Below are positions 322 to 17,750 of a DNA stretch of 50,000 nucleotides, one piece after another (within the stretch, counting starts at the first letter, position 1; each line of letters begins with the position of its first letter). The stretch lies in NCBI GenBank assembly GCA_051362555.1, contig JBPQGU010000015.1, positions 1-50,000 of the forward strand, given 5' to 3'. A program made the translations under genes and the position numbers. A model generated the notes under the pieces. It was not told the origin of the DNA, ran no database searches, and saw nothing but the letters and a program-made list of their open reading frames with translations. Source of the DNA: Lingula anatina. Lineage: Eukaryota; Animalia; Brachiopoda.

Positions 322-358
322 CAGAGTGGACATCTTTCACTGCAAGCAGAACAAACCC
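322..358 (-). CDS. 37-nt micro-exon continuing the TPR repeat (GFVLLAVKDVHS)
   Basis: Acceptor tttcag and donor G|GTGAGT. It joins in phase 0 to give NRARCHLSQ-GFVLLAVKDVHS, matching the TPR helix-B pattern G....A..D. Further exons were not resolved and the gene probably continues beyond the left edge. Confidence 0.7.
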
Positions 359-1368: not shown

Positions 1369-1617
1369 TGTTTTCCTAGGTTGTTTTCCGTCACTGTGTT
1401 CAGGCTGATACATAGGAGGTCCTGGGTTCATCTCAACATCTCCAGACAAAAAGAGCAGCAGGGATATCATCATCATTATCACCAGCAGAATACACCCCCC
1501 TAACTCATCACTTATTGCTTTCTGAAGATTTGGCAGAGTTCCAGATGGAGCTGCCCGAATTTTGCGATGTGCAAAGCATCCTATTCTAAGCCTCCATGCA
1601 TCTAGTGATATTCCCAT
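1369..1617 (-). CDS. First coding exon of a TPR-repeat protein gene, encoding a 66-aa leader ending in a 2A-like StopGo motif (GDVEMNPG|P) plus the start of the downstream product
   Basis: Acceptor ttacag precedes the exon start at 1646, and the ATG at 1617 has an in-frame TAG just upstream. Translation is MGISLDAWRLRIGCF...CILLVIMMMISLLLFLSGDVEMNPGPPMYQ...RKT. A consensus phase-0 donor ACA|GTAAGT follows 1369, with an alternative phase-0 donor AAG|GTTTTT after 1342. Confidence 0.8.
1417..1440 (-). other. 2A-like (StopGo) ribosome-skipping motif DVEMNPG|P
   Basis: Exact match to D(V/I)ExNPG|P, preceded by LLFLSG, similar to FMDV 2A LLKLAGDVESNPGP. The predicted skip lies between nt 1420 and 1419. 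Confidence 0.85.
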
Positions 1618-1970
1618 AGTGCTCTATATATTGTTTAGTTCAGCACCTGTAACATTAAATATTAAATTGGGAATCGATCACAGAGTCACAGTGGTGTTTT
1701 TTGACACAAACACAAATACCCTTGTAAATGAATTAAGTGTTTCAAATTGACATTAATACAGTACAACGTATATACCTTTTCAAATCATCAAAATTCTATC
1801 AGATTTTTTTCTGTTTTTTTTTAAAGAACATTGTCTGTACGTGGGACTTTTTTCATAATGGGCGTGAGCTTCCGTTTAATTTTTTATTTCCCGTCTAAAA
1901 CGATCAATGTGCTCTATTGTTTAACCTGCAATTTAGTTTCGTTTTGCTAAACAGTCAAAATCTCTCTTAC

Positions 1971-2095
1971 CTGGTGAATCTTTTTAAATAAAAATTGGTC
2001 CTTGGTGGTTGGTAGGACAGCTAGACAGCGGCATTAAATGAAGCGTAGACGTAACAAATCGTAACAGCCCTATCGTCTGGTTGACAAAACGAAAG
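1971..2095 (-). other. Putative 5' non-coding first exon of the 2A-TPR gene, containing a 16-codon uORF (2034-1984)
   Basis: Strong donor CAG|GTAAGA at 1971/1970, adjacent to the promoter motifs. The TSS position is approximate. Confidence 0.55.
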
Positions 2096-4102: not shown

Positions 4103-5092
4103 ATGACCGCCATCACAGCCAACATTGCATCCCAGAAAAGTTGTTATTGTTGCCAAACTTCACCATCATTAAGAGCACTGTCTTCATCATCTTCATCCTC
4201 ATCAACAAGGGATCCCAATAGAAACATGGACGTTGACGCTGCATTACATGAGTTAGGCATGCTCAGTTCAGTCACAGACGGGCGCAGGCAGTTTCTTCGT
4301 GAGCGCTCACGCACTCGGAGCGAGCAAGGCACCAGTTTCACAGTGGGCGGAGGCAGTTTGTGTGGCACGGGGGACACAGATATTGAAAATAACTACAGTC
4401 CTGGAAAGACTCCTTTCCAGATCATTTCTATGAATCCCAGCTATGTCACATCTTTTACCAATACCCCTACTCCTCTTCCAGAGACTGCTAGTGTTAACGT
4501 GATATCCACTCGTGGCTACCTTAACATGCAAACTGCTGAAATAGCGGATAATATGAATAACTTAAGTCTGGGGTCCAATTATCACCGTCAGCGCAGCCCT
4601 AGGGATGAGCATCATAACACTCGACTCATGAGACTTAAAATGGCGCGTTTGCGGCGCTGGAGGAAACCTTACGAAGTGCCATGGAGGTCGTCACTGGAGT
4701 TTGGAGGTTTGTCTAGTGGCTTTAGCCGAGGCAGTGGCTTAACATGTAGTCCGTCTAGTTCATGTAGCAGTACAACTGGTACAAACTCTAATGGAAACTG
4801 CCAGACGCCAACGAGAGAAGGACCGTCTTGTGGCAGTGATGGGGATGTTGATAAAGACGGGAAGCCAGGGATGAAGAGATGCGCCTCTAATTCAAACACC
4901 CCAGAGAAACTGAAGCAGGCGATCAGTCACCTTCCAACAGGGTTGACCTTTCATAGGTCACGTTCCATGGATGACTTGGACATTAAAAAATTTCCATCGG
5001 CTCAAGCGGAGAATTTAAACTACATGCTAGAAAAACGAGAGATTGATAGTATGTCACAGCATTTGAGTGACTTGAAGGTTGATGCTGAATAG
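4103..5092 (+). CDS. Uncharacterised Ser/Thr-rich, probably disordered protein, 329 aa, single coding exon
   Basis: Uninterrupted 990-nt ORF with clearly higher GC than its flanks, an acceptor about 70 nt upstream and an AT-rich 3' UTR-like region downstream. Short motifs include RERSRTRSE, LKMARLRRWRKPY and RSRSMDDL. I do not recognise the family. Confidence 0.8.
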   Translation: MTAITANIASQKSCYCCQTSPSLRALSSSSSSSSTRDPNRNMDVDAALHELGMLSSVTDGRRQFLRERSRTRSEQGTSFTVGGGSLCGTGDTDIENNYSPGKTPFQIISMNPSYVTSFTNTPTPLPETASVNVISTRGYLNMQTAEIADNMNNLSLGSNYHRQRSPRDEHHNTRLMRLKMARLRRWRKPYEVPWRSSLEFGGLSSGFSRGSGLTCSPSSSCSSTTGTNSNGNCQTPTREGPSCGSDGDVDKDGKPGMKRCASNSNTPEKLKQAISHLPTGLTFHRSRSMDDLDIKKFPSAQAENLNYMLEKREIDSMSQHLSDLKVDAE

Positions 5093-9155: not shown

Positions 9156-9358
9156 AATGATTGTAATAATTGAAAGTCGACAAAAATTTATCTTGGAAAA
9201 GAGAAGGTAATCACCAGTAGTTTGACTCGACTGTATAAGATTATTGTGGCCAACAAATGATTGTAATAATTGAAAGTCGATAAAAATTTATCTTGGAAAA
9301 GAGAAGGTAATCACCAGTAGTTTGACTCGACTGTATAAGATTATTGTGGCCAACAAAT
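9156..9358. repeat. 99-bp tandem duplication (2 copies) inside the DIRS gag region
   Basis: AATGATTGTAATAATTGAAAGTCGA...TTATTGTGGCCAACAAAT is repeated almost identically. Confidence 0.9.
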
Positions 9359-12032: not shown

Positions 12033-13662
12033 AATAATAATAATAATAATTTATTGAGCACTAAAATGTTTCAGTACATTTTGCAAGCCCTCTAAACTAC
12101 TTGTATATAGATACATTTAGTACAATCTAGACCTATTATCACAATAAAAATAAATAAATAAATAATAATAATGATAATAAGATAAAAAAATACCTATATT
12201 ACATAATGACAATTACATTGCTCTGTATTGTGGTAGACTTGCTCATTATTATTGACAGGCTAGTCTTTTTTTAAATGTTTGTTGGATGAAGTGACACACG
12301 GTTTTTAGGGAGTGTTCACTTTGAGGATTGAGAAGCCAGGCAAGTTTTTCTAAATCAGATGACATTTGCGGCGGTATCATTTTTATCATTTTTTCTCTTT
12401 CGTTCACATGCTCATTACATTTTAGTAGGAAATGCACTTCTGTTTCAACATCATTGCAATGTGGACATATTCGGTTTTCTACTGGTTTTTTTGGGTTTTG
12501 TGTAGCGACCTCTTTCAATTTCTAGGTCATGGTCGCTGATTCGAAATTTCGCAAGTGTTTTTATTTCATTTAGAGGGACTTTCATTGTGAGATAATTTTC
12601 TGGAGTGTAGGATTTCTTTATTGCTTTATAGGTTCTTAGTTTGCTTTTATTGTCACTGTGCAGATCGGTCCAAAAAAGTTCTTCAATTTTTTTAATAACA
12701 TTTACTTGAAGTAAGTTTGGGTCTACAGTGTTTAGATCTGTTGACAGTCCCCAGAGGTCTATAAAAGTTTTTAGAGAGCTTGACCAGCTAGGCCCTTTTA
12801 AATGGATTTCTCTTTCATAGATTTGTTTCACGATTCTATTTGGAGCAAGTTCTTTGAAACGAATTTGGTACTTAAAAACATGTTTTGCAATATCTGTGTA
12901 GAGTGGCAGCCTTCCAAGTTCTGCCCTACTTGCATTGTTGCTTGCATATTTCCGTACACCAAGAGCCCACTTACACGTTTTTAGATGGAGCTGCTCAAAA
13001 GGCATTTTATTAATTTTTTGGAGGGAGATTTTCTTATCTTTAAATAGTTCCTCTGCCCAAACTTCACAACCATAGAGTAAGATTGGCTTGACGGTTTTAT
13101 CAAAGAGTTTCATGTATAGTAGGGGAGAAGATATTTGGTGTGAAGAAAGTGCTGTTTTCAGTGCAAAAGATGCTTTCATTGCATTTTGTTTCAGGTTTTC
13201 AATTGCTTTTTTTAAAGACCCTGTGTTTGTGAAGGTTATTCCTAAGTATGTGAAGTTCTTCACAGATTCTATGATTTTGTTATTTATATAGAAGTTAATA
13301 TTCTTGTCTAGTTTCCCTTGTTTGTTAAAGATGACAACTTTTGACTTTTTCTCATTTACCTGAAGCTTCCATTTTCTGCAATATGTTTGAAGTGCTAATA
13401 AGTGGCCTTGTAGTCCTTCCTTGCTAGTTGATAACAGGACAAGGTCATCTGCATAGAGGATGTGGTTTAGGCCATCAATTGAGCAGTCCTTATTTTTGTT
13501 CTTTAAGATTTCTTTGATATCATCAATGAACACATTAAAGAGGGTAGGACTCAGATTATCCCCTTGTCTGATTCCTATCCTTGATATAAAAGGCTTTGTG
13601 TACCCTTCCCCAACAGAGATGCCTAATCTGGTGTTACTGTACATTGTTTTAATGATGCTGCA
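12033..13662 (-). mobile_element. 5'-truncated LINE (non-LTR retrotransposon, tentatively RTE-X-like): RT C-terminal half, CCHC finger, 3' UTR and (TTA)n tail
   Basis: ORF 12451-13644 contains GIRQGDNLSPTLF, LYADD, YLG and RISDHDLEIERGRY. ORF 12249-12518 contains CPHC..ETEVHFLLKC after one frameshift. AATAAA and a (TTA)n tail lie at about 12033-12055, and a candidate TSD ATTTAT occurs at 12027-12032 and 13663-13668. Confidence 0.92.
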
Positions 13663-16600
13663 ATTTATGCCCAGTAAAAATTCTTGGAAATAGGCTTATT
13701 TAGATTTAATTGGTAAGCCTCGATCCTAGCTACAGCTTTTCAAATTTATAGGGCCTATTTTAAATATAATATCGATGAGTTACAATGAAAGTTATATATG
13801 AAAATTTTATGGGGGGGGGGGGGGGGAGGGAGGGGGTAATGATGCAGGGAAGCAACGATGCGGGAAAGTAACGATTCGGAGGAGTATTGGTGTCGTGGAG
13901 TGACGGTGCGCGTACAACAGTAATTTTAGGGGGTACGTTTCGATGAGGGAATCTATCGGTGTGGGGTCGTATCGATGCGAAAATTAAAAAAAAAATCAAG
14001 CAAATGCTCTCAAGGCACTATTTTCCCTCAAAACAGGTGGGACTGTACTCAAATAGGGCTAAAAATCACGTTTTGATAGATACAATCAACAGTACCGGTA
14101 AGTCTTTAAAGAAAAATATCCAACCCCCCATTTTTAGTATTTTTTCGCATTAGGATTATTTATTAAAGCGTACGTGTATTCATCGCGATCTATTTTGTAA
14201 ATAATTTTAGTCTGGATTATGCTTGGATTGATCCTTGTCACTGTTTGGCAACTCGCCTTTAATGAATGCTGATCGACAGACAAACTTAGAGTTCTTCTTT
14301 AAAGAACACTATCTAACCCCTTTGCCTTGTGGCATAATGTCTTTATAAAGGTAATTTATGTAGTGTGAAGGGGGTGACTACCCTGGCAATACGGAAATCT
14401 AGAACCTAGGGTAAGGGTGACTTGCCTCACTTAAAAAGGGAATCGATCTTCATGCTGGTTGGAGCTGAACTGATGCTAACTAACTTTGTACAAATAAGGT
14501 TTTAATTATTTTAAAGAATTTTTGACATTATTGAACATTGCATATGAAAAGTTTTGATACGATTAAAATAATGGGTAATAAAGATCATGGGTTACTATTT
14601 AGCTCTGGCGTTAACTTCGTCTTGCGATATAAATGAATAAATGTTGCAAATTAAACTTTATTATAGTGTACTGTGTATGTGTTATACGACGACGTTAACT
14701 ACTTCTCCCCCAAGCCCCCCCCCCCCCCCCCCCCCCCCCATAGCATGTTTCTTTTCATATCGAAATGTTTTCAAGGCGTGGCAAAGAATCCCATCAACTG
14801 TTTTATTACTCATTCATTGTAGCAGCATGTTTTAAAATATTAAAACAAATTCATTTTTATAGGTACACATATTAATCGATAAAAAAATATAAACATTCAC
14901 CTTATTTCCTCGGTGTTGAGTTTTGTGGCAGTAATGTTTCAAAGAATTATGTAAGTATGCACGATGGAAGGCGCATGCACAATATTTGTGGAATAAAATA
15001 GTGAATTTTAACAGCAAGCGGAACTCAGTAAAATCTACAGGTACATTAGGGGCGGGTCCAGGTTTTTTTGAAGGGGGGGGGGGGGGCGTTTACTTTTTAC
15101 GGATTGACAGGCTTCGGATTGCGAGGCCGACCCTCACCCCGTTGGCGTTATGTTCGGGGCATGCTCATAGGCGCCGAAAAAATGGGGGTTTATTACGGCA
15201 AATGCATTTAACCAAGAACATTCATGAACACTTTCAACCACATTCCCTCGCCTGAAATGAACCATACCTGACTGAAATTTGCATAACAATAACTTGCTCG
15301 TCGTAGTGCGAGCTGTTTTTCCGAATACTCACTCGGCAGTAGGACACAGCAGGGTGAAGACGCAACATCTGTGGTGCAGTCGCAAGGTCGAGCTTTTGTG
15401 AGGCGTAGAAGCAAATGCATGTTTCGTAAGTATCACTTTTTCTTCAGTAGCGTATGTCAGTTGATAAAAAGAGAGTAGAAGAATGCAAGGAAATTTATGA
15501 AAAGTATTTACTGGTGTGTTACTACTCTTTGTTATATTTTGCCTGTCGTTTCTGTTATGACACTCAAAATATTATTAAGCAAATTACTAAATGGGCATAC
15601 CACCACAAAGATCACGGACTTATTTAGATGAAAATACCGAACTTGCCACTGTTCCGAACTTTTGATCCAAAGACAAGCGTGCCCCATCAACGTGTACATC
15701 AATTTTATTCAAACGTCTCATTTTACGACAATCTCGCTAGTTCAAAATTTTTAAATCAGTATTTGTAGGTTTGTTTACCTCATTTTACATGTACCTGTAA
15801 AATGTTTGTAAGCAGTGTTGAAATACGGGATAATGATTTAAACTAAAGCTCAGTATGGCTTGATGCAAAGCTATTTTAGATATTACAACATTATATAGTG
15901 GGTAAAATAAATAAACGTCCGTAGTGATGACCGCCACAAATTAGAGGAGTATTTTCAATATTTATTTTTTCAAAGATATCTGAAATATCTTTTTTTACTA
16001 ACTTCAGGTCTTAATTTTGGTATTAGGCAACTTAGATATCGATTGCTTTTTTGATGTTCTATCTAAGCCTGAACTTTGGACAAGTCGGTAAACACCCTTC
16101 TCATTTCAAGTCCCTCTTCTCTTAGATGTAAAATGCATTGGTCGTATCTTCCGAGCCTGCCCGTTTAGTCAGATATTGTTAACGTTATCTTCTCATTTCA
16201 GAAGTCCACTGAGATACTGAGAACTGCACGACACCCGCCTGCTAGCAACCAAGCCTTCCTTTCATGGTCTGGAGCACTTCACACATCCGTGCATCTTTTG
16301 TTTTAAAATTGAATAAATACGCTTGTAATTTCTTGTTTTCTTTTCACTTCGGTTTGAAATAATGATAAAGATATTGGCAATAATAGAGGGTTAGGGGTAA
16401 AATTATAAAGATATGATTATTGTCTGAGCACTTTCAAATTAAATCTGCTTAAACTGATTTGTAAGCATTGTTTGGGATTGATGATTTCTACAGTCACAGA
16501 AGATGTCTTAAAAGATTTAAAAGTTTTGTTAATATGCCCAATATTTTGTAAATAATTGAGTTTGAGCATTTTAAGAATACATCTACAGGATTTTCCAATA

Positions 16601-17214: not shown

Positions 17215-17750
17215 AAGAATGGTCTCGGCCCACCTGTCACCCCTTAAATTAAATGGTGTCGCCCAACCTGTCACCCCTCACATTAAATGGACTCGCCCCA
17301 CCTGTCACCCCTCAAATGTAAAATGGACTCGCCCCACCTGTCACCCCTCTTATGTAAAATGGACTCGACCCACCTGTCACCCCTCAATTGGAAAATGGAC
17401 TCGCCCCACCTGTCACCCCTCAAAAGTAAAATGGACTCGCCCCACTTGTCACCCCTCAAATGTAAAATGGACTCGCCCCACCTGTCACCCCTCTAATGTA
17501 AAATGGACTCGCCCCACCTGTCACCCCTCTAATGTAAAATGGACTCGCCCCACCTGTCACCCCTCAAAAGTAAAATGGACTCGCCCCACCTGTCACCCCT
17601 CATAGGTAAAATGGACTCGCCCCACCTGTCACCCCTCAAAGGTAAAATGGACTCGCCCCACCTGTCACCCCTCAAAAGTAAAATGGACTCGCCCCACCTG
17701 TCACCCCTCAAATGTAAAATGGACTCGCCCCACCTGTCACCCCTCAAATC
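17215..17750. repeat. 36-bp minisatellite, about 15 copies (AAAATGGACTCGCCCCACCTGTCACCCCTCAAATGT)
   Basis: Period of 36 seen directly (ATG at 17287, 17323 and so on). The first two copies are degenerate. Confidence 0.97.

Follow-up and report, generated by a model that had tools for sequence, protein, structure and literature searches.

A spliced, transcribed gene at the left end of the window

The window, that is the whole stretch of Lingula anatina DNA analysed here (50,000 nucleotides), carries near its left end part of a gene on the minus strand. Exon 2 of this gene, which holds the 2A sequence that prompted the analysis, belongs to a spliced and transcribed gene with the following features.

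1971-2080, minus strand: exon 1, untranslated, 5' end approximate (GT donor at 1970; read depth from bin 2001-2080; joints to exon 2)
1984-2034, minus strand: putative 16-codon upstream ORF within exon 1 (sequence only)
1369-1646, minus strand: exon 2, with the start codon at 1617, the entire 2A leader, 16 more codons and a phase-0 donor (sequence, RNA joints)
1573-1617, minus strand: N-terminal motif MG...WR.RIG.F, residues 1-15 (conservation in 35 relatives; read differences)
1447-1494, minus strand: predicted hydrophobic helix, residues 42-57 (mean Kyte-Doolittle value over 16 residues, KD16, 3.17; three hydrophobic-to-hydrophobic read differences)
1468-1476, minus strand: Met48-50, unconserved and unlikely starts (alignment; M50 is I in run X7)
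1417-1446, minus strand: predicted class A 2A/StopGo core SGDVEMNPG/P (sequence; class A listing in supplement 3 of PMC12338488; assay of a one-residue variant in PMC13405545)
920-1117, minus strand: exon 3, probably TPR-like (RNA joint; Pfam TPR_2 E 0.036, below cut-off; Atlas 0.96)
322-358, minus strand: exon 4 (GT-AG ends; matches residues 149-161 of P0001; three reads exit the window at 322)

The introns on either side of exon 2 (1646-1369) and of exon 3 (1117-920) have GT-AG ends and lie in phase 0. The RNA evidence comes from one set of four raw-read runs with the same species label. Three of the four contain the joint between exons 2 and 3 (6, 2 and 1 reads). The joint between exons 1 and 2 was likewise found in three runs, in X2 exactly as modelled (3 reads) and in X4 and X7 with other letters between the exons. 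The exon 3-4 joint was absent from the joint listing of the four runs. Mate orientation in X1 and X2 was consistent with minus-strand RNA, and expression was low (exon depth averaging below 8 per 80-base bin, each run being sampled to 6-25%). As the RNA reads are 90-99% alike, they may stem from other populations or from paralogs. An unspliced ORF of 129 residues (1617-1228) was dropped beyond residue 83, since the reads splice at 1369. Exon 2 occurs once in the window.

The closest named protein is L. anatina LOC106167800 (XP_013402126.1, XP_013402127.1), annotated as uncharacterized, with 153 of 161 residues (95%) identical over exons 2-4. Exon 2 is 93% identical to P0001, and a word-based search with this exon returned the ortholog as the sole match among 109 candidates. 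The LOC106167800 models end just after exon 4, at 163 and 174 residues, whereas three reads of run X2 extend past exon 4 at 322 into sequence outside the window. The transcript thus appears to run on beyond the window, which suggests a further exon, and the database models may be truncated. On hand reading of these X2 reads, the frame stays open for 10 further codons (agreement 0.74).

The earlier note had spoken of a TPR protein. This is likely, if weakly shown: the Atlas feature score is 0.96 to a cluster with TPR_1 in 14% of its members, and Pfam TPR_2 stayed below the cut-off on the exon 3 region (E 0.036, 14.6 bits against 27). We call exon 3 probably TPR-like. A PDB sequence search with P0001 gave no matches, and the single-sequence model of P0001 was unreliable (pLDDT 56, with strands predicted in the TPR-like region). 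Neither a leaderless ortholog nor a longer relative of the TPR part was found among 25 candidates, and no death domain was found in the part of the gene that lies within the window.

The putative upstream ORF (2034-1984, minus strand) stops roughly 40 bases short of Met1 once the RNA is spliced and could possibly act as a second brake on translation. Reads of the opposite (plus) strand at 2321-2400 start about 250 bases from exon 1, which suggests a bidirectional promoter shared by the leader gene and a divergent gene; further along on this strand lies an ORF of 329 residues (4103-5092) without a Pfam match. Elsewhere the window contains a LINE fragment at 12451-13695 on the minus strand (RVT_1, E 8e-22), which lacks a 2A core, a 100-bp tandem duplication (9156-9358), a 36-bp minisatellite (17218-17749, 14.9 copies) and a satellite of 362-bp period (21185-50000, 79.6 copies, 99% matches) that makes up the right 58% of the window.

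The leader and its relatives

The minus-strand translation of 1494-1417 is CILLVIMMMISLLLFL followed by SGDVEMNPGP; counted from the ATG at 1617, the hydrophobic part comprises residues 42-57 and the 2A core residues 58-67. This confirms what had been read from the letters alone, namely 16 uncharged, mostly hydrophobic residues running directly into the core and three in-frame Mets at residues 48, 49 and 50. The uncharged run is in fact longer than these 16 residues and extends over 21 (39-59). Its mean Kyte-Doolittle value is 3.17 for 16 residues and 2.83 for 19 (KD19), and the Hessa-scale sum of the hydrophobic run is -4.4 (a plain sum instead of the published predictor). With 21 uncharged residues and a KD19 of 2.83 the segment is long and hydrophobic enough to cross a membrane, as had been supposed. 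In a model of the aligned leader, residues 41-60 are predicted as a helix (pLDDT 84-90); the model consists of two separate helices, packed without confidence (pTM 0.38).

A hydrophobic 16-mer of this kind is unremarkable when taken alone. The six-frame translation of bases 1-21184 yields 10 that are equally hydrophobic. What makes it special is that it adjoins the 2A core within a spliced exon. The pattern GD[VI]ExNPGP has a single occurrence in the six frames of the window, the exon 2 core, and none in 60 shuffles of bases 1-21184. Residues 60-67 (DVEMNPGP) fit the class A pattern (D/G/C/N)(V/I)ExNPGP given in PMC12846837, and skipping is predicted between G66 and P67. LLFLSG before the core is a Leu-rich hexapeptide ending in (A/S/C)G before D, which by eye resembles the LLLLSG-like group, and positions -19 to -10 contain four Leu.

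A phmmer search of 1.84 billion representatives gave 23 matches at E<=0.001. The whole leader is spanned by 19 of them; two cover only the 2A, one is the ortholog and one, the proline racemase P0015, was set aside as spurious. A profile search for longer proteins added 35. Of 57 proteins scored, 17 were dropped because they had no N-terminal motif or no strict core within the first 130 residues, and 8 near-duplicates were excluded from leader scoring. N-terminal motif and 2A core occur together in 40 relatives, with the residue after the skip site (P+1) at a median position of 63.5. The leader can accordingly be described as three parts: the N-terminal MG...WR.RIG.F motif, a predicted hydrophobic helix and a putative 2A. 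An Atlas search with the leader returned scores below 0.8 only and no usable structural match.

As 35 of the 40 relatives reach a KD19 of at least 1.6, the predicted helix is a trait of the family. The same value is reached by none of 48 distinct viral 2As, a contrast that is biased because the relatives were gathered by similarity to the exon 2 leader, which inflates their hydrophobicity. Within the family the present helix is extreme: it ranks fourth of 41 leaders by KD19 and has the lowest Hessa sum of the 41. Its uncharged run of 20-21 residues compares with a family median of 12, and a run of at least 16 is found in only 12 of 40 relatives. Position 46, charged in 53% of the relatives, is Val here. 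The three read differences that fall in the helix replace one hydrophobic residue by another each time.

The N-terminal motif is the other conserved part. In an alignment of 35 relatives, which are 33-43% identical to the leader, M1, R9, G13, E62 and NPGP are invariant; G2 and I12 are kept in 91% each, and position 8 is W or Y in all. Motif and skip site are 45-62 residues apart in the 36 aligned sequences, a range biased because the alignment excludes five relatives whose P+1 lies farther on, at 88-130. At all 67 viral loci the match is limited to the 2A half of the leader, and the motif is found upstream of none of the 48 distinct viral 2As (from 66 of the 67 loci). RNA read differences within the motif are three synonymous and no replacement changes. 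For motif and 2A core together the counts are four and none, elsewhere in the coding sequence 5 synonymous and 17 replacement (Fisher p 0.008; 0.010 with one repeated change counted once), a test on 26 coding differences, thus on small numbers, with regions picked after the family had been seen and with possible mixing of paralogs. No description of the motif was found in the open full-text literature that was covered; the peptide and its kind are already in print. N-myristoylation of Gly2 was set aside: judged by the N-myristoylation consensus, S/T is not prominent at residue 6, which is D or E in half of the relatives.

The alignment also bears on the start site. The earlier note had suggested that Met48-50 could begin a shorter leader, which would give a cleavable signal peptide of 17-19 residues ending in the 2A, like those of sea-urchin NLRs. 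Ten hydrophobic residues do run from Met48 to SG, and one Lingula record has the peptide at 4-19, as from a Met50-equivalent start, but three other records place it at 52-67 or 53-68 (PMC12338488, supplement 3). The three positions are Met in 0%, 11% and 3% of the 35 relatives and Met1 is Met in 100%, which does not support a short leader; M50 is moreover variable in the reads. Met1 has a strong context (A at -3, G at +4) and is carried by spliced reads via exon 1. Four out-of-frame AUGs lie between Met1 and Met48, A at -3 is present only for Met48 and G at +4 for none of the three, and a basic n-region is absent. With Met1 invariant and in strong context and Met48-50 unconserved, we regard a short signal-peptide start as highly improbable.

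The leader heads various other proteins. In 14 of the 40 relatives it precedes proteins of LINE-1 ORF1 type; a profile of these 14, picked by eye, matched LINE-1 ORF1p structures at E 3e-17. In P0049 it stands on a protein with endonuclease and reverse transcriptase (RT) domains and in P0042 on a URGCP-domain protein of a clam. Given these cargoes, the leader is portable and not connected to secretion of the protein that follows. The same leader is also seen on other cargoes (P0007, P0010, P0011, P0036, P0051, P0056), among which P0007 has, by eye and with no Pfam match, a THAP-like zinc-finger start and P0051 Cys-rich fingers. P0008 and P0012 have no Pfam domain; in both, matched 2A-like stretches stand in tandem, five in P0008 and four in P0012.

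Proposed release of the leader and other readings

The activity of the peptide can be gauged from a published library, in which we take two rows to be P2A and T2A. The presumed P2A scored 2.25/2.54/2.30 and the presumed T2A 2.31/2.54/2.53 (Snell and Matreyek, 2026; PMC13405545). A 20-mer of the same library that differs from the present peptide by I51M, with 59 of 60 bases identical by eye, came close to both (R 2.35, G 2.37, IR 2.14); the construct carried 20 residues, with 10 of the 16 hydrophobic residues among them, inserted within a fluorescent protein, and was assayed in a pool in HEK293T cells. Its class, 'Falloff Only, Reduced Protein Levels', was assigned by an SVM whose recovery of its training set was 86%; individual confirmation is requested by the authors. 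The classes are noisy: among the rows compared (30 of 354 and 30 of 47), near-identical peptides fall into opposite ones. Taken together, the assay data favour an active 2A, without fixing the split between restart and fall-off. Supplement 3 of Rao et al. (2025; PMC12338488) gives the last 15 residues in four rows, three of them of Lingula lineage, as class A with activity N/A. The same supplement includes at least two other, different Lingula 2A peptides (protein positions 26-38 and 102-118).

Several published observations concern the hydrophobic residues before the core. Active eukaryotic 2As typically have a hydrophobic, Leu-rich helix at -19 to -10, at least three Leu being linked to lower scores and helices to reduced protein (PMC13405545). 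The F2A cryo-EM work of Li et al. (PMC12846837) describes contacts of a Leu-rich helix with the exit tunnel that are needed for activity. For retrotransposons, Odon et al. (2013; PMC3708506) placed 2As 40-80 residues from the N-terminus, a range that includes the present P+1 at residue 67, and proposed that they down-regulate the downstream product; the same argument was made by Luke et al. (PMC3894237). Baral et al. (10.64898/2026.09.24.754024) describe 2As as common in retroelements.

On these grounds our preferred reading, to which we give somewhat better than an even chance, is that a borrowed 2A leader of transposon type, placed in the first coding exon, detaches from and dampens the TPR-like protein. 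The hydrophobic helix would grip the ribosome exit tunnel, the 66-residue leader would be freed at NPG/P, and the downstream protein would be made leader-free, in the cytosol and at reduced amount. Exon structure, transcription and the motif are observed, and so is the homology of the leader, over its whole length, to those of LINE ORF1p, an endonuclease-RT protein and other proteins; we infer the skipping and the reduced output in the native animal. The leader would have been acquired by capture from a mobile element. As no transposon remnant lies at exon 2 (tblastn of 65 proteins found no ORF1p or RT remnant flanking it), the capture from a LINE is inferred only. The leader runs into a splice donor and then a TPR-like exon, not into ORF1p or APE-RT of an element; it would work like the leaders of elements while lying outside any of them. 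BAG6 is reported to take up hydrophobic C-terminal tails, which are then directed to membranes or, commonly, degraded (10.1101/2022.07.20.500724), and the released peptide and unskipped chains may be cleared by membrane-protein triage of this type. Only about the last 10 residues are implicated in skipping, so that the preferred reading leaves the extra helix length unaccounted for.

The leader could instead be inert, carried along as an exon that was captured recently and provides the start codon, with 2A activity and selection both slight in the animal. The low expression (mean depth below 8 per 80-base bin) would fit this, as would five replacement against two synonymous read differences in the TPR exon of run X1 and the many retrotransposon 2As that are weak or inactive (PMC3708506). 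The core is nevertheless fully canonical, variant reads leave the protein of motif and core unchanged, and the assayed I51M variant scored like active controls. We consider such inertness quite improbable.

Another alternative is a role of the leader in targeting. The earlier note had invoked a sea-urchin precedent for a double role of a 2A as signal peptide, and this precedent is real: a reporter was secreted to 15% with the wild-type and to 44% with the skip-dead sequence (Roulston et al., 2016; PMC4981915). Applied from Met1, unskipped chains would be anchored in the ER membrane via residues 39-59 and skipped ones would be cytosolic, the skipping efficiency setting the ratio. In its favour are the run of 21 uncharged residues with its KD19 of 2.83 and the lowest Hessa sum of 41 leaders (-4.4), the Val at the frequently charged position 46 and the read differences that keep the helix hydrophobic. 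Against it, the flanks carry charges of -1 (N side) and -2 (C side) over 15 residues and thus no positive-inside cue. In the family, C-minus-N charge is negative in 30 of 35, which would suggest an N-in/C-out orientation with the cargo in the lumen, a trend due in part to the D and E of the 2A core itself. TPR-like and ORF1p folds are not expected to work in the ER lumen. LINE ORF1 proteins do their work on RNA, both in the cytosol and in the nucleus. The helix itself is not supported as a sign of targeting: the same leader heads LINE ORF1 proteins, and hydrophobic residues at -19 to -10 are reported as typical of active eukaryotic 2As (PMC13405545). The sea-urchin result was moreover obtained with reporters only, and we judge dual targeting of the present protein to be unlikely.

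The conserved motif admits a further reading, which can coexist with the preferred one, namely that the leader is a functional unit. At the 2A pause the motif would lie just outside the ribosome, where a factor or a membrane could read it and thereby tune release and restart; or the 66-residue product would insert as a tail-anchored micropeptide with a role of its own. The invariance of M1, R9 and G13 and the universal W/Y8 at 33-43% identity would agree with such a role, as would the spacing of 45-62 residues in the 36 aligned, the read differences in the motif being synonymous only, and the viral 2As, 48 of 48 distinct ones lacking the motif and none reaching a KD19 of 1.6. If skipping occurs, the released product is expected to end in a hydrophobic helix plus a tail of nine residues. 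However, the spacing range is biased by the omission of the five longer-spaced relatives, the two-helix model lacks confident packing (pTM 0.38), a membrane-length uncharged run is found in only 12 of 40 relatives, and BAG6-dependent degradation is a common fate of hydrophobic C-terminal tails (10.1101/2022.07.20.500724). We give this reading, too, a low probability. To our knowledge, the leader has no described partner.

Bolder still, the leader may be an undescribed portable switch that LINE proteins and cellular genes share across invertebrates. On emerging at the 2A pause, the motif would be recognised by a factor or membrane choosing between release, restart and ER insertion. The helix would here have grown to membrane length and so yield either a micropeptide with a tail anchor or a second form of the TPR-like protein, bound to the membrane. 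We think this doubtful.

Comparison with known 2A systems

The N-terminal 2As of APE-type non-LTR retrotransposons (PMC3708506, PMC13405545) share with the present leader a canonical GD(V/I)ExNPGP within 40-80 residues of the N-terminus, and the whole leader is homologous to those of ORF1p-like and endonuclease-RT proteins. In contrast to these elements, it occupies a spliced exon of a cellular gene, next to a TPR-like exon and with no element remnant. It also resembles the 'leucine stall-helix' 2A-like peptides of PMC13405545 in having four Leu at -19 to -10, but the native helix is six hydrophobic residues longer than the 20-mer assayed there. TPR does not occur as a 2A context in the main text of that paper.

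In SpNLR2A of Strongylocentrotus purpuratus (PMC4981915), too, a hydrophobic stretch leads directly into a canonical core close to the beginning of a cellular protein of a marine invertebrate, and the length of SpNLR2A, 26 residues, equals that of residues 42-67 here. SpNLR2As form the first 26 residues of their proteins, and 12 of 14 score as signal peptides; the dual targeting was demonstrated with reporters for this 26-residue N-terminal peptide. In the present gene the extreme N-terminal position is not found: the hydrophobic run begins only at residue 42, after 41 residues that include the conserved motif, and Met1 is conserved and in strong context. Unlike in SpNLR2A, therefore, only a role as internal signal-anchor would be possible. 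The cargo, as far as it lies within the window, is probably TPR-like, against DEATH-NACHT-LRR in the sea urchin.

The present locus adds to the cellular genes that bear a hydrophobic 2A at the N-terminus, and its peptide has already been catalogued and screened. The conserved motif 45-62 residues upstream of the skip site suggests that assays of 20-mers overlook part of the element. The effect of N-terminal position on 2A function has been called unclear (PMC12338488), and dampened expression has been proposed for such leaders (PMC13405545). The gene lends itself to a test of dual targeting (Roulston et al.) against dampened expression (Snell and Matreyek), since data on the 20-mer are available and few leaders of the family have a more membrane-like helix.
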